Shown here: piece after piece, positions 1,610 to 11,085 of the stretch
Layout of the letters: each line of letters opens with the position of its first letter
Position numbering within the stretch: the stretch's first letter is position 1
Sequence record: PQ850613.1
Strand: one strand, 5' to 3'
Source: Escherichia phage KarlSchell_Bas89
DNA: 64,000 nt
Notes under the pieces: model-generated
Databases searched by the model: none
Told to the model about the DNA's origin: nothing
Seen by the model: only the letters and a program-made list of their open reading frames with translations
Program-made: the position numbers and the translations under genes

Positions 1610-3853
1610 ATGGCTAAGAAGAATTTTAGTGAAGATGTATTGGATGAACTGCGCGTTGACCTTCAACGTCGATTCAACTACGCTCAAGGCTACGTAGATA
1701 TCGCTGTAAAAGGCTATGCTCGCGAGGCTTGGGAATATTTTTATGGGAACCTTCCTGCTCCAGTTACAGCTGGTAGCTCTAGTTGGGTCGATCGTACAGT
1801 ATGGGAATCAGTAAACGGTACACTCCAAGATATCATCAACGTATTCTGTTCAGGTGATGAAGCAGTAACATTTGTAGCAGACAACCAAGCAGACAGCGAT
1901 GCAGCTGACGTAGCAACTAAGCTCGTTAACCAAATCCTGTTGCGTGATAATCCGGGATACAATGTTATTTCCTCAGCGGCACAAGAGTGTCTTGTCACTC
2001 GTAACTCTTTTATCAAATATTATTGGGATGAACAAACCTCCACTCAGACAGAAGAGGCAGAGGGCGTACCTCCAGAAGCACTTGCTGCATATGTGCAGGG
2101 ATTAGAGGCTGGTGGTCTTGAAGAGTTAGAAGTATTTACCACTGATAATGATGACGGCACAGTGGACGTCAAGGTTAACTACAAACAAACAGTAAAACGT
2201 GTGAAGGTTGAGTATGTTCCTTCCGAACAAATCTTTGTAGATGAACATGCAACCAGCTTTGCTGATGCACAATATTTCTGTCATCGTGTACGTCGTTCTA
2301 AAGAAGATCTCGTAGCTATGGGTTTCCCTAAAGATGAGATTGAAGCTTTTAACGATTGGACGGATACGATGGACACTACCCAATCAACTGTTGCTTGGTC
2401 ACGTACTGACTGGCGTCAGGATACAGATGCAGATATCGGTGTAGATACTGAAGATATCGCTTCTATGGTTTGGGTTTATGAACATTACATCCGTACTGGT
2501 GTACTGGATAAGAATAAAGAATCAAAACTCTATCAGGTTATCCAAGCAGGTGAGCATATTCTTACTTGTGAGGAAGTAACCAGTATTCCGTTCGTAACTT
2601 TCTGCCCGTACCCAATTCCGGGTTCATTTTATGGTCAGTCTGTCTATGACATTACGAAAGATATCCAAGATTTACGTACCGCACTAGTTCGTGGTTATAT
2701 TGATAACGTAAACAATGCTAACTATGGTCGTTATAAAGCGATTGTAGGGGCGTATGACCGTCGCTCTTTGCTAGACAACCGTCCGGGTGGAGTTGTTGAA
2801 ATGGAGCGTCAGGATGCGATTGATTTGTTCCCATACCACAATCTACCTCAGGGTATTGAGGGTCTGTTGGGAATGTCTGAAGAATTGAAAGAAACTCGTA
2901 CAGGTGTCACTAAGCTCGGAATGGGTATTAACCCTGATGTGTTTAAGAATGACAACGCCTATGCTACTGTAGGTTTGATGATGAATGCAGCTCAGAACCG
3001 CCTCCGTATGGTATGCCGTAACATTGCACACAATGGCATGGTTGAGTTAATGCGTGGAATCTACAACCTTATCAGAGAAAATGGTGAAACTCCTTTACAG
3101 GTTCAAACACCTCGTGGAATGGTTCAGGTAAATCCGAAACAGTTACCACCTCGTCATAATTTACAAGTTGTTGTAGCTATCTCTCCTAATGAGAAAGCAG
3201 AACGTGCACAGAAACTGATTAGTCTGAAACAGCTGATTGCTGCTGACCAACAGTTAGCACCTCTCTTTACTCTGGAGCAAGATCGTTACATGACTGCACA
3301 GATCTTTGAGTTGATGGGAATTAAGGATACTCATAAATACTTAATGCCTCTTGAACAATATCAGCCACCGCAGCCGTCTCCGATGGAAATTCTCCAGCTG
3401 GAAATGACTAAAGCTCAGGTTGAGAACGTACAGGCTTCTTCTCAGAAGATGATTGCTGATGCATTCGACCAGCGTGAACGTACTACATTTGAACAGCAGA
3501 AAGCTGCCGATGAGTTCAGTCTGAAGCAGGAAGAGTTGCAGTTCAAGCAAGAAAATGCAGCAGATGTAATGACCTTAGAGAATCGTAAGGAAGATAATAG
3601 TGCTACTCTGGAACAAGCTAAACACAAACTGTCTCTTCTTCAGCAGCAGGTTCGTCAGTATGAATCCGTACTGAAAGAACTACAGATGGTTATGGACCAT
3701 CAGGTTGACCAAGAGAAGATTGTTGCTCAAGCACAGGTTCAGGATAAGACTTTGGAACTCCAAAAGAAAGAGTCAAATGTAACTAAGAAAGACCAACAGA
3801 AGACTCTAAAAGATTCTAGGATTCCTAACAGGCGTCTTGGTAGTAAAAAATAA
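1610..3853 (+). CDS. putative portal protein (747 aa)
   Basis: Position between terminase and scaffold/capsid, size, Q/E-rich coiled-coil C-terminus; RBS GAGGGAGAG before ATG; no specific motif verified. Confidence 0.55.
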   Translation: MAKKNFSEDVLDELRVDLQRRFNYAQGYVDIAVKGYAREAWEYFYGNLPAPVTAGSSSWVDRTVWESVNGTLQDIINVFCSGDEAVTFVADNQADSDAADVATKLVNQILLRDNPGYNVISSAAQECLVTRNSFIKYYWDEQTSTQTEEAEGVPPEALAAYVQGLEAGGLEELEVFTTDNDDGTVDVKVNYKQTVKRVKVEYVPSEQIFVDEHATSFADAQYFCHRVRRSKEDLVAMGFPKDEIEAFNDWTDTMDTTQSTVAWSRTDWRQDTDADIGVDTEDIASMVWVYEHYIRTGVLDKNKESKLYQVIQAGEHILTCEEVTSIPFVTFCPYPIPGSFYGQSVYDITKDIQDLRTALVRGYIDNVNNANYGRYKAIVGAYDRRSLLDNRPGGVVEMERQDAIDLFPYHNLPQGIEGLLGMSEELKETRTGVTKLGMGINPDVFKNDNAYATVGLMMNAAQNRLRMVCRNIAHNGMVELMRGIYNLIRENGETPLQVQTPRGMVQVNPKQLPPRHNLQVVVAISPNEKAERAQKLISLKQLIAADQQLAPLFTLEQDRYMTAQIFELMGIKDTHKYLMPLEQYQPPQPSPMEILQLEMTKAQVENVQASSQKMIADAFDQRERTTFEQQKAADEFSLKQEELQFKQENAADVMTLENRKEDNSATLEQAKHKLSLLQQQVRQYESVLKELQMVMDHQVDQEKIVAQAQVQDKTLELQKKESNVTKKDQQKTLKDSRIPNRRLGSKK

Positions 3854-3862
3854 GGACACTGA

Positions 3863-4099
3863 ATGAATACACAACATCAATTCAATAAAGAGCATGCCGC
3901 CAGTTTGGCGGCTCTCAATCTTACAGGCAGTCTTGACGCAGCATTAGAGGCATTGAAAGAGAAACTCATGAAAGAAATCGTATCAACCGAGCCTCATGAG
4001 AACAAGAAACGCGAAGATTGTTATCAAAAGTATAAAATGGTGGGTAGCTTAAAAGAGGTCATAAAAGCTGCTATCAATAGTGCAGGAGATGTTTCATAA
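3863..4099 (+). CDS. hypothetical small head-module protein
   Basis: 78-aa ORF, stop overlaps next start (TAATG). Confidence 0.4.
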   Translation: MNTQHQFNKEHAASLAALNLTGSLDAALEALKEKLMKEIVSTEPHENKKREDCYQKYKMVGSLKEVIKAAINSAGDVS

Positions 4100-5181
4100 T
4101 GCCACAAGATAATTATATTGACCCGAACGATTTTAAATCTTTCCTCCAACTGGATGACCTGAAAGGTTCCTTCAAAGAAGAACTTGGTCGATTAGAATCT
4201 GAACAAGAGCCAGAAGTGGACATTGACGAAGACTTCCCTGAATCTCAGGCTGATGACTTCGACATTGACACCGACCTTCTCGGCAAAGGCGATACGCTAG
4301 CGTTCGAAGATGAAGATGGATGGGAAGATGAAGAAGAAACGGAAGACGAAGCAGATGAGACTGATGATGTTGTCGAGGATGACGAATCAGATGAGTCCAG
4401 TGATGCTGAACACGAAGAAACAGCTGACGAGGATGTAGACTACGAAGACGGCGACGTCTACGATGTTGACTACGAAACCGTTATCACTCTTCCGGATGGT
4501 CGTGAAATGACAATCGAAGAATTGTCTAACGGCTACTTAACTGGTTCAGCGATGACCGAACGAGAAGAAACTCTCCAACGTCATGTTGAAGCTTTTGAAG
4601 AACGTGTTGTAGGTTTGAAGGATGTATTAGATTTGGCGTCTCTGGAAGCAGACCGTGTAATTGAAGATTACAACGGCTTTGATTGGGACAAGCTCGCACA
4701 AGAAGATCCTCAGGCTTATGTAGAAAACAAACGTTTCTTAGAAAAATATGTAGCTCGTCGTCAGCAGCTGGAAGCAGCTCAGGCTAAGGCTAAACAGGAA
4801 GCGCAAGCTAAAGAAGAGGCTGTATTCCGCTCTAAGAGTGCTGAATGTGTTGCTATTCTGAAGCGTGAGATTCCTAATTGGGATGAGAATCTGTATCAGG
4901 GACTGATGCAATATGCAATTGATCTCGGTGCTACAGAGGAAGAAGTATTGCGGGAGAATCGTCCGTCTATCTTCTTGGCTTTACATAAAGCATACCAGTT
5001 TGATAAAGGTAAGCAACAGGTAATGGCTAAGATTAAACGTCCGGGTGCTCCACGAAAAGTCGTGAAGTCTGATGCTTCTAAAGCTCGTACTTCCGGTAAG
5101 CCAGACAACGCTAAGGTTGCCAAGGCATTTGCAGAGGGTCGTATTCGTCATGAAGATGCATTTAAGTATCTTGTAGATTAA
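4099..5181 (+). CDS. putative scaffolding protein (acidic)
   Basis: Very D/E-rich N-terminal half, coiled-coil character, located between portal and capsid. Confidence 0.5.
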   Translation: MPQDNYIDPNDFKSFLQLDDLKGSFKEELGRLESEQEPEVDIDEDFPESQADDFDIDTDLLGKGDTLAFEDEDGWEDEEETEDEADETDDVVEDDESDESSDAEHEETADEDVDYEDGDVYDVDYETVITLPDGREMTIEELSNGYLTGSAMTEREETLQRHVEAFEERVVGLKDVLDLASLEADRVIEDYNGFDWDKLAQEDPQAYVENKRFLEKYVARRQQLEAAQAKAKQEAQAKEEAVFRSKSAECVAILKREIPNWDENLYQGLMQYAIDLGATEEEVLRENRPSIFLALHKAYQFDKGKQQVMAKIKRPGAPRKVVKSDASKARTSGKPDNAKVAKAFAEGRIRHEDAFKYLVD

Positions 5182-5222: not shown

Positions 5223-6296
5223 ATGGCAAATCCAACTTTATTTGTATCTTACGACCAGAACGGTAAAAAACTTTCCTTCGCTAACTGGATTTCTGTTCTG
5301 TCCCCGCAAGACACTCCGTTTGTGTCTATGACTGGTAAAGAGTCTATTAACCAGACTATTTTCAGCTGGCAGACCGACGCACTGGCAGCAGTTGATGCAT
5401 CTAACGCACACATCGAAGGCTCTCGTGCTGATGATGGCGAAATGCAGCCGACTGTAATCAAATCGAACGTTACTCAGATCCTGCGTAAAGTTGTTCGTGT
5501 ATCTGATACCGCTAACACCACCGCTAACTACGGTCGTGGTCGCGAACTGATGTATCAGCTGGAGAAGAAAGGTAAAGAGATCAAGCGTGACCTCGAAAAA
5601 ATCCTTCTGTCCGGTCAGGCTCGTACCGACGTGCTGGCTGACCAGTACCTGACTAACTCTGCAACTGATCCTGATCTGGTTGGTAAGAATGACACCAATG
5701 CAGCTCGTAAGACTGGTGCTTTCCAGTTCCTGTGTGCTCACGGCGGTCTGACCGGTGCTTCTGGTTCTCAGGTTGTTGATAAAACTAAGAACGGTCCTGC
5801 TGACCCGGATACTGGTGCAGTAACTGTTAAAGTTGCACAGAATGCTTCTAACCCGACCACTAACGTTGGTTTTGACGAAGCTGATATCTTTGATATGACT
5901 CTGCAACTGTACACTGCTGGTTCTGAAGCTGATATTATCATGATCAACCCTGCTCATGCTAAGATCTTTGCTGCTCTTCAGGAAAACTCTGTTGGTTCTC
6001 GTCAGCGTATCTTTGAGAACACCAAGCAGTTCATCTATGAAGTTAACAGCATCACTGACCCGCTGGGCCAGAGCTACAAAATCATCGTTAACCGTTGGAT
6101 GCCTACCGATGCAGTATACTTCTTCCGTAGTGCTGACTGGACTCAGATGGTCCTGCGTGCTCCGAAGCGTACTGAACTGGCTAAAGATGGTTCTTATGAG
6201 AAGTGGATGATTGAAATGGAAGTTGGTCTGCGTCACCGCAACCCTTATGCTTCTGGTGTTCTGTTCACTGCTGCGGGAAAGGTAGCGGCGGCGTAA
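5223..6296 (+). CDS. major capsid protein (short form, 357 aa)
   Basis: Strong RBS TAGGAG 8 nt upstream, position after scaffold, followed by a frameshift-accessible Ig-like extension as in T7 10A/10B. Confidence 0.65.
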   Translation: MANPTLFVSYDQNGKKLSFANWISVLSPQDTPFVSMTGKESINQTIFSWQTDALAAVDASNAHIEGSRADDGEMQPTVIKSNVTQILRKVVRVSDTANTTANYGRGRELMYQLEKKGKEIKRDLEKILLSGQARTDVLADQYLTNSATDPDLVGKNDTNAARKTGAFQFLCAHGGLTGASGSQVVDKTKNGPADPDTGAVTVKVAQNASNPTTNVGFDEADIFDMTLQLYTAGSEADIIMINPAHAKIFAALQENSVGSRQRIFENTKQFIYEVNSITDPLGQSYKIIVNRWMPTDAVYFFRSADWTQMVLRAPKRTELAKDGSYEKWMIEMEVGLRHRNPYASGVLFTAAGKVAAA

Positions 6297-7660
6297 CAGT
6301 AGATACCGTAACTGTTAGTCCTTCGTCGGTTGCAAGCCTTCCGACGGGGGCTACTCAGCAGTTTACAGCTACAGCAGAAATGAGCGACGGCTCCACAAGC
6401 ACAACCGGATTTAATTGGTCCGTTGAAGGCGGTGGGGCTGTTTCTGTTTCTGGGCTATATACTGCACCGAGTGCGTCGCAAGAAACCCCAGCAACTATTA
6501 CGGCAACTAAAGGTGGTAAGACAGGTACTTCTACAGTCCAATCTGTTTTTGAGCCCGCTACTATCGAAGCTAAAGCTAACATCACAGGTAAGATTGGTGG
6601 AAGTACTACAGCCTTTACTACAATGTTCACATCAACTAATTCTTCGGCAGAAGATTATTCTTTTGTTGTATCTCCAACATCAGCAGGAACTGTCAGTGCA
6701 GCAGGAGTTTTAACTTTGAGTAACAATGCAACAGGTACAGTTACTGTTAAAGCTACCCATAAAACTCAACCAGGAGTTGAAGCCACTGTAACCTTTACAG
6801 GTGTTGTTGCCAAAGCGGCTATTACTGGAAAAACAGTCACAGGTAAAATTGGGGGCGATACTGTTGCGTTTGCTGATCTATTTACAGCAACAAACTCTTC
6901 CGCATCCAATTACAACTTCGTAGCTAACCCTTCTGGAATGACTACCTCTATCAACACTAACACTGGACTTGTTACTTTATCGGCTAATGCTACAGGTGAT
7001 GTAACAATTACAACTACTCACAAAACTCAAACCTCAGTTACTGCTACAGGGACCATCAGTGGTGTAGTTCCTAAAGCCACTATCACAGGTAAATCTCTTA
7101 CCGGTAAAGTTGGGGGTGATGTGATTCCTTTCGCGGATATGTTCACCAGTAACAAACCAGCATCAGAATTCAACTACGTGTTGACTCCGACTGGTGATGT
7201 AGGTGAAATTAACACTACTACAGGTGCACTGACTCTCTTAGATGCTCCTACAGATGAGCTTATTAGTGTTAAAGCTACCCATAAAACTCAAACTTCTGTA
7301 ACGGCAACCGCTACAATCACAGCCACTCCGAAACTTACGGGCCTTGTTGCTTCTAATGTTTCTAATACTGTGGTCGTAGGTGCTCCAGAGAACCCTCTTG
7401 CTACAGACTCTATCACAATCACTGACTCCGCTCAACCGGGTGTAGTTCGTTTTGATGGTGTACCTCAGGGTTCGGTAGTTGGTGCTCTGTCTTATGACAC
7501 AGAAGGTACTGATGTAGGTTTGATGGAAGTTGATTTAACAGGTCAGGTGTTGACAATCACTTTATCAGCTCCGATTACCAGTGAAGATACTAAAATCTCA
7601 ATCAGAACTAACCCAGCCTCTACAATATTCCGTACTTATGTTGTCAAGTCTGGTGCATAA
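5223..7660 (+). CDS. predicted long capsid form via -1 programmed frameshift: capsid body fused to a ~459-aa Ig-like (Big_2-type) extension
   Basis: -1 frame is open from 6215 to 7660; slippery heptamer G_GGA_AAG at 6275-6281 in the capsid frame; a Big_2-like domain ('VTVSPSSVASLPTGATQQFTATAEMSDGS...') begins upstream of the ATG at 6380 and runs through it. Confidence 0.55.
6275..6281 (+). promoter_or_regulatory. candidate -1 ribosomal slippery site GGGAAAG (X_XXY_YYZ) near the capsid 3' end
   Basis: Heptamer is in register with capsid codons GCG-GGA-AAG; after slippage the reading continues GSGGVTVDTVTVSPSS... Confidence 0.5.
6557..7330 (+). repeat. three tandem ~83-aa Ig-like domain repeats within the capsid extension (coding repeats)
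   Basis: Repeated blocks 'ITGK..TGKIGGDTVAFADLFTATNSS..NY.FV...TG.VT..ATHKTQTSVTAT' starting near 6557, 6806 and 7069. Confidence 0.6.
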
Positions 7661-7664
7661 ACCT

Positions 7665-7700
7665 AAGCTGCCTTCGGGCGGCTTTTCTTGTTTTAAGACC
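7665..7700 (+). terminator. intrinsic terminator (GC stem, UUCG loop, U-tract)
   Basis: agctgcc-ttcg-ggcggct followed by tttcttgtttt. Confidence 0.6.
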
Positions 7701-7716
7701 TATACATGACCAAGTG

Positions 7717-7726
7717 TAATGTATAT
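7717..7726 (+). promoter_or_regulatory. recurrent promoter-like motif TAATGTATAT, 33 nt upstream of the 7759 gene
   Basis: Same 10-mer recurs upstream of other genes on both strands (24565, 34531, 34459 minus, 45655 minus). Confidence 0.4.
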
Positions 7727-7758
7727 TCTTTGTCTACATACAACTAGGAGGACAATCT

Positions 7759-8505
7759 ATGGCGATGCCAGACGTTCAGTACCCAATTAATACCTACGGA
7801 TGGCTTAAGAAGGCTGTGTCCCTCTGGGCTGACCGTGATGACCCTGAATTTGTTAATCAAATTCCAAACTTTATTAACTTTGCAGAAAAGGAAATCTATC
7901 GTAATTTACGTATTCCTCCTCTGGAAAAAGAAGTCTATTTAGATATTAAAGATGGTGTGGCTTTTATCCCACCAGATTACTTAGAAGCTCAGTGGATGAT
8001 GAGATCTAAAGATGGTTTAATCTTCCGTGTAACTTCTCTTGAAGAAGTGGATTGGCTTAAACGTAATAACTCAGTCAACCCTACTAATTGGAATCAGGGA
8101 GAAGTTGTCTTTGCTCGTTTGGGTAGTCGATTTATCTTCTATCCTGCAATTGAAGCAGATACTCCAGTTTACCCCGATGATGGCAGCCCTGAGATTCCAG
8201 CAGACAATGCGGTTATCCTCAGCTATTATGCTGACCCACCAGAATTTTGGGAAGACTCAGATACGAGTGCTATTCTTACTATAGCCCCAGAGCTTCTGTT
8301 ATATTTTGCTTTACGTCATGCTTCCTTGTTTGTTCAGGATGACAATGCAGTTCAGAAGTGGTCTGCTTTAGGTAAGGCTATTCTTGATGAAGTTGTTGAG
8401 CAGAGTAAGAAAGCAGAATACTCAGGTTCACCTTTAGTTATTCCTAACACGATTAGCCGTCTACATAGCTCTCGTGAAGTATATGGGATTCGTCGTTTTA
8501 GATAA
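7759..8505 (+). CDS. hypothetical virion protein (248 aa)
   Basis: RBS AGGAGG; located in the structural arm directly before the tail fiber genes. Confidence 0.4.
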   Translation: MAMPDVQYPINTYGWLKKAVSLWADRDDPEFVNQIPNFINFAEKEIYRNLRIPPLEKEVYLDIKDGVAFIPPDYLEAQWMMRSKDGLIFRVTSLEEVDWLKRNNSVNPTNWNQGEVVFARLGSRFIFYPAIEADTPVYPDDGSPEIPADNAVILSYYADPPEFWEDSDTSAILTIAPELLLYFALRHASLFVQDDNAVQKWSALGKAILDEVVEQSKKAEYSGSPLVIPNTISRLHSSREVYGIRRFR

Positions 8506-8514
8506 GGAGAGAAT

Positions 8515-11085
8515 ATGATCGTTTATAATAACCAAGCACCTTCGGCTGTTAACAACGTTGGTCAGTTTGGTGCAACAGAAGGCTCTATCGGAGCCTATAA
8601 ACAAGCTGCTGAATACGCAGCTGACTCTAAGTATTGGGCACTTTTAGCTGAGTCTAAATTTGGTACAGTTGATGACTTGATTGCTCAGGTTGAACTTCTG
8701 TATAAACAAGGTGTCCTGTTAAAAGAAGACATTGAAGATTTGAAACAAGACTTCATTGCACAAGATGCTCGTTTGATGAATCTTATTGCTCAAACTAACG
8801 CAGCTGTAGCTGATGCAAATAACGCAGTTGCTCTGATTAACCAGAAACTTGTAGAAGTTCAGCGCCAGTTGGATATTCTGTTGGGTATGACAGTCACCGT
8901 TACAACGCTTCCTCCGGGTTCTGAGGCCACTGGTTCATTTAACAACCAGACTGGTGAAATTAAACTTGGTATCCCTGAAGGGGAGAAAGGTGCAGATGGC
9001 TCTGTTACTGACCTATCTACTGCTCCTACTGGTACACCAGAGCTGGGAGATATAGGTTTCTATGTAGACAAAGATGATAACACTGTTCATAAAACCTCTC
9101 TTGAAGCTATTGCAAACCTGATCCCATCTGTTCGTTCTGTTTCTATTAACGATGGCCCTGCGCTTGATGGTGAAGTGGCTCTTACGATCAACAAAGGGAC
9201 AGTAGGTCTTGGGAACGTTTTGAACGTGGCTCAATATAGTCGACAAGAGATTAACGACAAGTTTGATAAAACAACTAAAACATACCAATCGAAAGCCGAA
9301 GCTGATTTAGATGCTCAATTTCGACAAGTGGGAGAGAAGGTTTTGGTGTGGGAAGCAACTAAATATGAATTCTATACTGTTGCAGCTAATAAGACACTCA
9401 CTCCAGTTAAAACGGAAGGCCGTATCCTGACTGTTAACTCTCGTGCCCCTGATTCAACAGGTAACATTGATATCACAATTCCAACAGGAAACCCCTCTTT
9501 GTATCTAGGTGAGATGGTGATGTTCCCTTATGACCCAGCTAAAACTGTTTCATATCCAGGAGTTCTTCCTGCGGATGGTCGTCTTGTTCCTAAAGCAAAC
9601 GCAGCAGACCTTGGACCCTCTTTAGTCAGTGGTCAATTGCCTGTAGTTTCTGAAACAGAGTGGCAAGCTGGTGCTCGTCAATATTTCTCTTGGGGTAAAT
9701 TGGCTGATGGTATTACTGATGCTGACTCTTCTAATTTCATTAACATAAGACTTCCTGATTGGACAGGTGGCGAGGCTATTCGCTCCCCTGACTCTGATAA
9801 AGATTCTCAATATGACGGCTCTGTACAAGCTCAGAAACCTTATGTTGTCACTGTAAATAATCAGGCTCCTGATGAGGTTACTGGTAATGTGAACATCTCC
9901 AGATCAATTTTAGGTGCTGCTTCTTCTGGGGCAAACTCTGACATTACATCTTTATCTGGACTCACAGCACCATTATCCATCTCTCAAGGCGGGACTGGAT
10001 CTACAACCGTAGACGGGATTCGTCATACTTTAAAAATAACCCCATTTACCAGTGAAAATAATCACGCATTTATCTTCTCCCCGAACCTGTTAAACAGGGT
10101 TGTATTAAGGGATGACGGATACTTTATCATACAAGAGAGAAGTGATACCTCATCTGATAGCTGGACACCTAATCCGGTGTCCATAGAAGCGGGTGGTACT
10201 GGAGCATCTACATCCAGTGGGGCACTTGCTAATCTCGGTTTAGGCCCTACAGCTACTCTCGACGTCATACCAGTTGCCAATGGTGGTACTGGAGCAACTG
10301 ATGCTGCTGGTGCTCGTTATAATTTAGGATTGGGAGGTGTTTCTACTCTTGATAACGTACCAATCGCCAGCGGTGGTACAGGTGCTGGGGATGCCGCTGG
10401 TGCCCGAAGCAACCTTGGAGCGCTGAGTAACACTCCAGCAAACACAGGTACAGGTGGTACTGGTGCGCGAGTCCAACATGCCACCGGAAGTGGCCTGTTT
10501 ACTTTAGACATGTTTAACTGCTACTGGTATATGCAGCCAGAGGATACTAACTTCTGGGTTGCCCACGGTGTGTCATATGCAGGATCTAGTGGCGAAGCCT
10601 CAGATTATGGTCGTATATCTTACGCAATAAAGATTGCAGACGGAACAACAAAATATGTCCATTGTCTTACAAACAAAAACACCATTACTGATACAGGCGG
10701 GTTTATCAAAGCGGCATCTCCGGTAGTTAACATTTATGCCAACGGTCAATATGAAACGAATGATGAATCTGAGGGGGTTAGTGTCATCCGGCAGGGTATT
10801 GGTGAATATCTGATTACCGGTTGCCTCGGTCTTAACTCTGATGCAAGATGGGGTGGGGTGGATGGGGGGTTTGAAATCCCAACAGATCGCAATAAGCAGC
10901 CTAGGATTTGGCTGGATTATGAGGTTAAAGAAGATGGTTCTATTTTAGTTAAAACCTATCACAGAACTCACTCAACCTCTCCAGTTTTTGCTAGAAATGA
11001 GATAGAAGGTTTTTCTGATGGGGACCCTATTGATATTCCAAGTGATGCTTTTATCTCAGTTCGTGTAGAGATGCCAGCTAAATAA
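8515..11085 (+). CDS. tail fiber protein with Gly-rich fiber repeats
   Basis: 856 aa; N-terminal coiled coil; three repeats of 'GGTGA.DAAGAR.NLGL' around 10190-10440. Confidence 0.55.
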   Translation: MIVYNNQAPSAVNNVGQFGATEGSIGAYKQAAEYAADSKYWALLAESKFGTVDDLIAQVELLYKQGVLLKEDIEDLKQDFIAQDARLMNLIAQTNAAVADANNAVALINQKLVEVQRQLDILLGMTVTVTTLPPGSEATGSFNNQTGEIKLGIPEGEKGADGSVTDLSTAPTGTPELGDIGFYVDKDDNTVHKTSLEAIANLIPSVRSVSINDGPALDGEVALTINKGTVGLGNVLNVAQYSRQEINDKFDKTTKTYQSKAEADLDAQFRQVGEKVLVWEATKYEFYTVAANKTLTPVKTEGRILTVNSRAPDSTGNIDITIPTGNPSLYLGEMVMFPYDPAKTVSYPGVLPADGRLVPKANAADLGPSLVSGQLPVVSETEWQAGARQYFSWGKLADGITDADSSNFINIRLPDWTGGEAIRSPDSDKDSQYDGSVQAQKPYVVTVNNQAPDEVTGNVNISRSILGAASSGANSDITSLSGLTAPLSISQGGTGSTTVDGIRHTLKITPFTSENNHAFIFSPNLLNRVVLRDDGYFIIQERSDTSSDSWTPNPVSIEAGGTGASTSSGALANLGLGPTATLDVIPVANGGTGATDAAGARYNLGLGGVSTLDNVPIASGGTGAGDAAGARSNLGALSNTPANTGTGGTGARVQHATGSGLFTLDMFNCYWYMQPEDTNFWVAHGVSYAGSSGEASDYGRISYAIKIADGTTKYVHCLTNKNTITDTGGFIKAASPVVNIYANGQYETNDESEGVSVIRQGIGEYLITGCLGLNSDARWGGVDGGFEIPTDRNKQPRIWLDYEVKEDGSILVKTYHRTHSTSPVFARNEIEGFSDGDPIDIPSDAFISVRVEMPAK

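Follow-up and report, generated by a model that had tools for sequence, protein, structure and literature searches.

The capsid gene in the phage DNA analysed here (the window, 64,000 nucleotides of Escherichia phage KarlSchell_Bas89, PQ850613.1) very probably yields two proteins from one start codon, through a -1 ribosomal frameshift at the slippery heptamer GGGAAAG close to its 3' end, with an Ig-like extension carried by the long form. Most ribosomes would translate positions 5223-6296 only, giving the 357-aa capsid protein, and a minority, we infer, would slip, with tRNA-Gly and tRNA-Lys on G_GGA_AAG re-pairing on GGG_AAA, and then read the -1 frame to position 7660. The resulting 812-aa protein would consist of an HK97-fold body, a Gly/Ser linker and five serial beta-sandwich domains (Big_2, three repeats and a C-terminal domain). 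It probably co-assembles in small numbers into the prolate head, where the Ig-like string would be displayed outside and most likely adhere weakly to carbohydrates of the cell surface or the environment. That both forms would be present in virions is carried over, by analogy, from published work on relatives. The evidence supports the frameshift reading, but this has already been published for the phage group, and because two capsid forms are in the literature the present analysis rediscovers a known feature. The details that are possibly new are a conserved hairpin with a few compensatory changes, and the alternation of frameshift and gene duplication among relatives.

The slippery site and the -1 frame

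The phage is a phiEco32-like coliphage (Gordonclarkvirinae, EP335-like). The short product of its capsid gene (39.1 kDa, C-terminus ...FTAAGKVAAA, then stop) matches the Pfam family PF17236 SU10_MCP (E=1e-76), and is 99.7% identical to the EP335 capsid protein and 91-99.7% identical to capsid proteins of the Kuravirus group. In the capsid frame the heptamer is read GCG-GGA-AAG, which fits the pattern X_XXY_YYZ and agrees with the register given in the preliminary description; it is the only in-register heptamer of this pattern within the capsid gene. The sequence G_GGA_AAG is rated ‘highly shift-prone’ in E. coli (review PMC5009743). Twelve bases lie between the heptamer and the capsid stop codon (TAA, 6294-6296), and the distance of 13 nt given earlier holds when counted from the last base of the one to the first base of the other.

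The -1 frame is open over 6215-7660, between a TGA (6212-6214) and a TAA (7658-7660), and contains no ATG, GTG or TTG upstream of its first start codon, ATG 6380, which lies 99 nt 3' of the heptamer. The ORF called from this ATG is, as had been proposed, the continuation of a frame open since 6215 that overlaps the capsid 3' end. GGGAAAG occurs in eight copies on the two strands of the window, of which only the capsid-site copy has long open stretches on both sides (353 zero-frame codons before and 459 open -1 codons after it; for the other seven the maxima are 32 and 139). The heptamer is in register in 19 of 19 distinct Gordonclarkvirinae junctions, 9-15 nt ahead of the stop, and is also present in Privateer-type phages (56% capsid identity), adjoining the stop in Privateer and vB_CsaP_009. 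The locus combines several parts of a canonical -1 frameshift cassette, namely an in-register heptamer, an overlapping long -1 ORF lacking a credible start, and conservation. A sequencing error in the window was rejected, the same frame arrangement being found in dozens of independent genomes.

Table 1. Features of the capsid locus (positions in the window)
Feature	Position	Strand	Basis
Major capsid protein gene, short form	5223..6296	+	ORF list; SU10_MCP family, HK97-fold
Slippery heptamer G_GGA_AAG, capsid-frame register	6275..6281	+	sequence; invariant in 19 distinct related junctions
-1 frame extension, 459 codons + stop	6281..7660	+	translation
Gly/Ser-rich linker GSGGVT, capsid body to first Ig domain	6281..6298	+	peptide alignment GKG(S/G)GG...VTVD
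7-bp A/U-rich hairpin UAACAGU/ACUGUUA, candidate proximal stimulator	6294..6317	+	RNA fold
Big_2 Ig-like domain	6299..6550	+	Pfam PF02368 E=2e-8; AlphaFold strands over residues 7-90
Irregular conserved 20-bp hairpin, arms 6308-6329 and 6341-6366	6308..6366	+	RNAalifold
ATG picked by gene callers; internal Met of Big_2 domain	6380..6382	+	no Shine-Dalgarno; not conserved
Three tandem beta-sandwich repeats, ~83 aa each	6560..7327	+	repeat boundaries; AlphaFold pLDDT mostly >90
C-terminal beta-sandwich domain, extension residues 354-457	7340..7651	+	AlphaFold; only some relatives
Intrinsic terminator closing the capsid + extension transcription unit	7665..7694	+	terminator scan: 8-bp stem, then T-run

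The extension and other explanations of its frame

Translation across the site reproduces the slip junction ...AAGK-GSGGVTVD... put forward in the preliminary description and gives a predicted long form of 84.6 kDa, the extension of which has homologues in at least 30 phage and metagenome proteins. The AlphaFold model of the extension has a pLDDT of 92.3, lower (72) across the first 10 residues. The Big_2 match covers extension residues 7-81 (model positions 2-72, nt 6299-6523), and the claim that this domain starts before ATG 6380 is borne out by both the Pfam match and the AlphaFold strands, which place its beginning at nt 6299, 27 codons upstream. Foldseek searches with the repeats (extension residues 94-176, 180-263 and 268-349) returned matches to tandem-Ig arrays, and repeat copy number is variable among the relatives, whose extensions span 178-545 aa and differ in repeat-motif counts. 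Paul, Bas86, EP335 and Bas87 carry the SEDTK...KSGA tail, which phiEco32-type phages lack. Because the slip codon encodes Lys, trypsin cleaves at the junction, and the computed tryptic peptide past it is 77 aa long (GSGG...TATK); the predicted chymotrypsin junction peptide of the long form is TAAGKGSGGVTVDTVTVSPSSVASLPTGATQQF.

The start codon picked by gene callers implies an independent gene, whose free 426-aa (42.7 kDa) Ig-like decoration protein, with the predicted N-terminus MSDGST..., would bind the capsid non-covalently, the heptamer being incidental. In Bas86, EP335 and SGF2, the nearest relatives, automated gene calling gives exactly this ORF, the corresponding 426-aa product is found in protein databases (P0001), and a structural paper on SU10 (PMC9509320) considered that gp10 might be a minor capsid protein in its own right. 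We nevertheless consider such a gene improbable. The Shine-Dalgarno duplex energy at ATG 6380 is +1.2 kcal/mol, compared with -5.9 to -10.2 at five neighbouring starts, a value equalled or bettered by 91% of the ATG triplets in the window. Its Met, extension residue 34, is aligned with K or L in phiEco32-type and Bas87-type phages, which together with the missing Shine-Dalgarno sequence marks it as an internal residue and not a start. Across relatives the -1 ORF has its first in-frame start codon anywhere from +8 to +128 nt past the capsid stop and the first ATG from +86 to +605 nt, while Privateer-type extensions contain no ATG; a conserved start codon with its own ribosome-binding site, of the kind that serves a free decoration protein such as T4 Hoc, was not seen among them. 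Translation from 6380 would also not yield complete domains, since Big_2 loses 27 residues (model positions 2 to ~28), including strands 7-14, 19-21 and nearly all of 25-34. The 83-nt stretch from the capsid stop to this ATG has 7/27, 6/28 and 20/28 variable columns at -1-frame codon positions 1, 2 and 3, a periodicity that is consistent with purifying selection and shows that it evolves as coding sequence in the -1 frame. In-frame capsid-Ig fusions carried by relatives likewise argue against a separate protein.

The coding periodicity ahead of ATG 6380 also counts against the very improbable case of a decaying remnant, in which too few ribosomes shift to have an effect, or the long form is left out of the virion, as apparently in the sequenced SU10 stock. 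In the deposited SU10 sequence, a 1-nt indel closes the -1 frame 13 codons past the heptamer (an interruption also treated in PMC9965538), and the cryo-EM structure of the SU10 head lacks density for the extension (PMC9509320), indicating that the phage can do without the long form, at least under laboratory conditions; furthermore, the TH34 extension stops inside the C-terminal domain. A flexible, low-copy tag would, however, be averaged out in the SU10 reconstruction. In the window, by contrast, the -1 frame runs uninterrupted over 459 codons with a confidently modelled fold, and the extension is 99% identical to P0001 from an independent 77-kb contig. Slippage of RNA polymerase during transcription, rather than of the ribosome, would yield the same -1 frame product, but is extremely improbable here and was rejected because the longest homopolymers at the site are A3 or G3. 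Known cases need runs of ~7 or more A or T (PMC5009743; also general knowledge), and what is conserved is the X_XXY_YYZ register with respect to the capsid frame, which is relevant to ribosomes only.

Candidate stimulatory RNA structures

For the ribosomal frameshift at GGGAAAG, the search for a downstream stimulatory structure suggested in the preliminary description gave a weak 7-bp hairpin and a conserved 20-bp hairpin, but no stable structure at the usual stimulator distance of 5-9 nt. No strong, closely spaced downstream structure was detected (z against shuffles -0.1 to -1.3, and -0.1 to -1.0 in four single-sequence folding windows), and no upstream SD-like motif at the usual distance from the heptamer was seen on reading positions 6255-6274. 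The 7-bp hairpin begins 12 nt past the heptamer (9 nt in phiEco32-type phages), with the capsid stop codon as its first three bases, and its energy is no better than that of shuffles. Its stem is nearly invariant among relatives, which leaves no variation for a covariation test.

The 20-bp hairpin begins 26 nt past the heptamer in the window and 19-26 nt past it across relatives. In an alignment of 19 sequences, 98.4% of cells are paired, compared with 26-51% in slid controls, and three pairs are changed on both sides (G-C, U-A and A-U), one of them at a synonymous Ser codon position. The hairpin is also part of the MFE structure of the window (z -1.3) and of phiEco32 (z -1.7). Scans of IMG/VR and metagenomes brought the covariation sample to 19 distinct junctions in ~5 haplotype classes, and because only a handful of these are new variants the covariation evidence remains suggestive. 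The two hairpins overlap and are thus mutually exclusive, and the 20-bp hairpin might compete with its proximal neighbour for the ACUGUUA segment. Tentatively, and with considerable doubt, the 20-bp hairpin could act as a distal element, specific to this lineage, that controls the ratio of long to short capsid protein, and more broadly the SU10_MCP clade may be selected for a fixed minority of Ig-tagged subunits. A further hairpin, which encloses the heptamer (CUGCUGC/GUAGCGG) and was proposed for SU10 by Mirzaei et al., also forms in the window, but was not counted as a stimulator because it melts before the ribosome reaches the site and varies among relatives.

Related phages and known recoding systems

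The GenBank record of phage Paul contains a joined CDS with the note ‘Frameshift at GGGAAAG’, citing work on phiEco32 (PMID 18294652), the two capsid forms of which are known here through this note and through the Privateer and SU10 papers. In SU10, capsid forms of 38.5 and 55.4 kDa were found by mass spectrometry (PMC4281155), and in Privateer two bands were seen and the minor form was detected in virions by mass spectrometry (PMC7881722); the capsid frameshift has also been described group-wide (PMC9965538). The published mass-spectrometric support in these relatives consists of peptides from both parts of the protein together with band sizes, apparently with no junction peptide.

The closest published systems are gp11 / gp11-12 of phiEco32 and gp9 / gp9+10 of SU10 (Kuravirus), which share with the window the SU10_MCP family, the heptamer and its register a few codons before the stop. 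Capsid proteins of phiEco32-type phages are 91-94% identical to that of the window, in a comparison that covers phages other than SU10 itself. Gene order is also common to both, and peptide alignment from the heptamer onwards shows that phiEco32 gp12 has the same Gly-rich linker and a Big_2 first domain, but the phiEco32 extension is 178 aa long, compared with the 459 aa that include three repeats and a C-terminal domain here, and its spacer between heptamer and stop is 9 instead of 12 nt. For Paul and YF01, long isoforms of 894 and 892 aa have been annotated or described as arising by frameshift at GGGAAAG. Their junction is nearly identical to the one found here, and they share the repeats and the C-terminal domain, but the extension is 545 aa long, and these phages belong to the genus Kuravirus, whereas the window is nearest to EP335 (Nieuwekanaalvirus) and Bas86. 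The Proteus phage Privateer also combines a -1 frameshift at GGGAAAG with the 3' end of a SU10_MCP capsid gene and an Ig-like extension (I-set + Big_2), but differs in its distant capsid, its lack of a spacer before the stop, and the domains of its extension, which are unrelated in sequence.

The T7/T3 gene 10A/10B system resembles the window in being a -1 frameshift at the end of a podovirus capsid gene that produces a minor, longer, co-assembling subunit, but its capsid belongs to a different sequence family and its extension is much shorter. The slippery sequence of T7/T3 gene 10 also differs from GGGAAAG. The same heptamer G_GGA_AAG is used in E. coli by the lambda G/GT tail assembly chaperone, which differs from the present case in being a tail chaperone rather than a capsid protein, one that does not end up in the virion and has no Ig domain. 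In phi29, gp8 carries a C-terminal BIG2 domain as an in-frame capsid-Ig fusion. Such fusions likewise have an Ig-like domain covalently attached at the C-terminus of an HK97-fold capsid protein, but involve no recoding, the long form having its own gene or every subunit bearing the domain. Slippage has been put at ~10% for T7/T3 gene 10 and ~3.5% for lambda G/GT (both quoted in PMC9965538), and the T3 10B extension is Ig-like while that of T7 is not (PMC5009743). With 715 capsid subunits, as in the SU10 head, slippage of 3-10% would correspond to roughly 20-70 long subunits. The analogy with T7 10A/10B has already been drawn in published papers on the phiEco32 group.

Some relatives lack the heptamer and contain a second capsid paralogue with an Ig-like extension fused in frame, suggesting that the capsid-Ig fusion is a selected architecture. 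For example, the BUCT695 paralogue consists of SU10_MCP residues 10-309 followed by Big_2 at 321-397, and the same pattern is found in ECO319P1, APT65 and the metagenomic protein P0035 (on L043). Lahexavirus-like phages have an apparently non-canonical heptamer G_GUA_AAG, accompanied by a GC hairpin, for which our literature search found no relevant report of frameshifting. The SU10_MCP clade may meet a need for an Ig tag interchangeably, by frameshifting at GGGAAAG, at the apparently non-canonical G_GUA_AAG, or by duplication and in-frame fusion. Frameshift and duplicated capsid gene provide a natural example of two genetic routes to a mixed capsid, in agreement with general proposals of Fraser et al. 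and Atkins et al.

A covalent Ig string on a minority of capsid subunits would bear on virion proteomics and cryo-EM of prolate phages, on engineering (cf. C-terminal capsid display in T7), and on ideas that capsid Ig domains mediate weak surface adherence. The reading is chiefly of value for annotation: in the records of EP335, Bas86 and SGF2, the closest public genomes, the place of an 812-aa long capsid form is still taken by a truncated ‘Ig domain containing protein’ or ‘hypothetical protein’ that begins at the internal Met. The surrounding genes follow a common plan (portal, small ORF, scaffold, capsid with extension, adaptor, tail fibre), with the window ORFs at 3863, 4099, 5223, 6380, 7759 and 8515 arranged as in the annotations of Paul, Bas86, phiEco32 and EP335, and a terminator is annotated at the equivalent place in the Paul, Privateer and SU10 records.

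The probable frameshift junction and its gene setting

A -1 frameshift at the slippery heptamer GGGAAAG (6275-6281) very probably produces a fusion of the capsid protein with an Ig-like extension, and the support for this interpretation begins with the window itself, in which everything set out in the preliminary description is present. The heptamer lies in register in the capsid frame (G_GGA_AAG), whose product ends ...FTAAGKVAAA ahead of the stop TAA at 6294-6296. ATG 6380 falls in the -1 frame, which opens at 6215, past TGA 6212-6214, and contains no ATG, GTG or TTG from there up to 6380. Slippage would give the anticipated junction ...AAGK-GSGGVTVD... and a long form of 812 aa (84.6 kDa), next to a short form of 357 aa (39.1 kDa). 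GGGAAAG occurs eight times in the 64-kb window, and only the copy at 6275-6281 is flanked by two long open frames, with 353 zero-frame codons upstream and 459 -1 codons downstream.

The junction lies in a block of head genes from a phiEco32-like prolate podophage (Gordonclarkvirinae), and the ORF order of this block matches the annotations of Paul, Bas86, phiEco32 and EP335. Over 5223-7660 the DNA is 96% identical to EP335, 94% to Bas86, and 86-91% to about 90 other coliphages. The capsid protein, a member of SU10_MCP (Pfam, E=1e-76), shares 99.7% identity with its EP335 counterpart. In Bas86 an inserted HNH endonuclease gene (L002, the Bas86 locus, 4024-4536) separates the Ig ORF from the adaptor gene, and this insertion is missing from the window (7661-7758), EP335 and phiEco32.

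Coordinates of the head-gene ORFs, extension domains and alternative heptamers (extension residues counted from 6281 onward)
Feature	Nucleotides	Extension residues	Source or locus
Small ORF	3863		ORF list
Scaffold	4099-5181		ORF list
Capsid	5223-6296		ORF list
Ig ORF as called	6380-7660		ORF list
Adaptor-like	7759-8505		ORF list
Tail fibre	8515-11085		ORF list
Big_2		7-90	Window
Three ~83-aa repeats	6560-7327	94-176, 180-263, 268-349	Window
C-terminal domain		354-457	Window
G_GTA_AAG	~4912-4918		L009-L012 (Lahexavirus-like)
G_GTA_AAG	3412-3418		L017 (Aeromonas phage LAh_9)

Probable translation upstream of ATG 6380 and the Ig-like extension

Four independent lines of evidence indicate that the stretch before ATG 6380 is translated: the Big_2 domain and fold, the missing Shine-Dalgarno sequence, codon periodicity, and the lack of conservation of the Met. 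As had been proposed, Big_2 (PF02368) starts before the ATG, with model position 2 aligning at extension residue 7 (nt 6299) and the Met at residue 34; likewise, in the AlphaFold model (mean pLDDT 92.3) two beta-strands (7-14 and 19-21) and almost the whole of a third (25-34) precede the Met. No Shine-Dalgarno sequence was found at ATG 6380, where the anti-SD duplex energy is +1.2 kcal/mol, compared with -5.9 to -10.2 at five neighbouring gene starts, and 91% of the ATG triplets in the window score at least as well. In the 83 nt from capsid stop to ATG, alignment of 19 distinct junctions gave 20/28 variable -1-frame columns at third codon positions, next to 7/27 at first and 6/28 at second positions; such third-position variation is, as judged from the alignment, the signature of a coding sequence. 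The Met aligns with Lys in phiEco32, KBNP1711, ECBP2, ES17 and Bas92, and with Leu in Bas87. Among relatives, distances past the capsid stop range from +8 to +128 nt for the first in-frame start codon of the -1 ORF and from +86 to +605 nt for its first ATG. The closest public genomes (EP335, Bas86 and SGF2) still annotate the truncated ORF.

The extension model (AlphaFold2, 33-sequence alignment) is all-beta, with five beta-sandwich domains predicted in series. Its Foldseek matches in the PDB are tandem-Ig arrays, including cadherins, S-layer proteins, LigA Big_2 repeats, RTX adhesin repeats and the Ig-like domains of the SU10 nozzle protein. This predicted architecture, together with general knowledge of phage Ig-like domains, suggests surface display and an adhesive role. 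The extension is modular, with the C-terminal domain present or absent among relatives, and its length runs from 178 aa (phiEco32-type phages) through 372 (EP335) and 459 (the window and Bas86) to 545 (Paul). In the extensions of the related loci L001-L034, the copy number of the ~83-aa repeat differs even among otherwise close relatives.

Conservation of the shift site and candidate stimulatory structures

The capsid frameshift is an already known feature of phiEco32-like phages. In the GenBank record of Paul a joined CDS is annotated 'Frameshift at GGGAAAG', and the annotation extends the frameshift to the PhiEco32 major capsid protein product (PMID: 18294652). Mirzaei et al. reported the same site in SU10, listing 38.5- and 55.4-kDa forms with mass spectrometry (PMC4281155). 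For Privateer, two bands and mass-spectrometry detection were described in a paper that mentions observation of both forms in phiEco32 and SU10 (PMC7881722). The paper on YF01 reports two isoforms in 'YF01 and other group phages', likening them to those of T3, T7 and lambda (PMC9965538). G_GGA_AAG is highly shift-prone in E. coli, and phage structural proteins gain Ig-like extensions via frameshifting or in frame, as reviewed by Atkins et al. (PMC5009743). The frameshift interpretation and its T7 10A/10B analogy are therefore correct, but already in print for this lineage; residual interest lies in a distal conserved hairpin, in the G_GUA_AAG of Lahexavirus-like phages, and in the alternation of frameshift and duplication across the SU10_MCP clade.

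GGGAAAG is in register in all 19 distinct Gordonclarkvirinae junctions, which come from public phages and from contigs of IMG/VR and metagenomes, at 9, 12 or 15 nt ahead of the capsid stop, with a -1 ORF of 172-540 codons past that stop. In Privateer and vB_CsaP_009 capsid identity is down to 56% and the extension sequences are unrelated, but both phages nevertheless keep GGGAAAG, with an ATG-free -1 ORF of 168 codons. In these two phages (L016 / L027, 3448-3457) the capsid stop TAA abuts the heptamer, and in Privateer-type phages a predicted hairpin begins 6 nt past it, a different layout of the same frameshift device.

Deposited SU10 calls for caution. Compared with phiEco32, its sequence (L044, KM044272, 1091-1140) carries a 1-nt indel about 20 nt past GGGAAAG. 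The indel closes the -1 frame after 13 codons and leaves two stops ahead of the Ig ORF, which lies in the zero frame, an interruption likewise noted by the YF01 authors (PMC9965538). The indel conflicts with the 55.4-kDa fusion of the 2014 proteomics, but fits the 2022 cryo-EM, in which extension density was not seen (PMC9509320). It may be a sequencing error or laboratory mutation, and at most indicates that a phage can lose the long form, without implying its absence elsewhere.

The suggested search for a downstream stimulatory structure did not yield a textbook stimulator, but did yield a conserved, suggestive candidate hairpin. Single-sequence folds are no more stable than shuffles (z -0.1 to -1.3). 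An A/U-rich 7-bp hairpin (6294-6317) lies 12 nt past the heptamer (9 nt in phiEco32-type phages), and is nearly invariant. RNAalifold predicted an irregular 20-bp hairpin (6308-6329 with 6341-6366), which reuses the ACUGUUA segment. Across 19 sequences, 98.4% of its pair cells hold standard pairs, versus 26-51% with partners slid 1-3 columns, and both sides are altered in three pairs, one of which occurs as G-C, U-A or A-U and joins a synonymous Ser third position to the second position of a variable P/E/Q/L codon. Its covariation score exceeds all 500 shuffles, but is only suggestive because the sequences form ~5 haplotype classes and the shuffles are blind to relatedness. Stimulators usually lie 5-9 nt downstream. 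The long hairpin begins at 19-26 nt, and any role in frameshifting would thus be unconventional. UAACAG (6294-6300, overlapping the capsid stop) is complementary to both upstream CUGUU (6261-6266) and downstream CUGUUA (6311-6317), so more than one hairpin can form at the site. Each of the three segments shows little or no variation across the 19 sequences.

Relatives with gene duplication or another heptamer

Relatives lacking the shift site and the -1 extension contain an additional capsid paralogue whose C-terminus continues in frame into an extension. The paralogue comprises SU10_MCP residues 10-309 and Big_2 321-397 in BUCT695 (L020:3549-4778), and SU10_MCP with a partial Big_2 match in ECO319P1 (L018:3511-4593). 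In APT65 (L019:569-4760) a long capsid gene (428 aa) comes after three short ones. On metagenomic contig L043 (996-3503) a short gene (315 aa) precedes that of P0035 (501 aa), whose tail is homologous to the repeat and C-terminal domains of the window. Gene duplication seems to replace frameshifting as the route to a minority long capsid subunit. Given these in-frame fusions, what appears to be selected is that some of the capsid subunits bear a covalently attached Ig-like module, with frameshifting as one route. The shift-site-free relatives contain two to four tandem SU10_MCP genes, the last with the in-frame extension.

Lahexavirus-like phages contain a non-canonical G_GTA_AAG a few nt ahead of the capsid stop, and no report of a frameshift there was found in the literature searched. 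Their -1 ORF is ATG-free in L009-L011 and has no ATG near its 5' end in L012 and L017; its predicted product contains two Big_2 domains in the former and an I-set Ig domain in the latter. In L009-L011 a GC-rich 6-bp tetraloop hairpin begins 6 nt past the heptamer. The LAh_9 annotation presents the -1 ORF as a 'tail protein' begun at an internal GTG.
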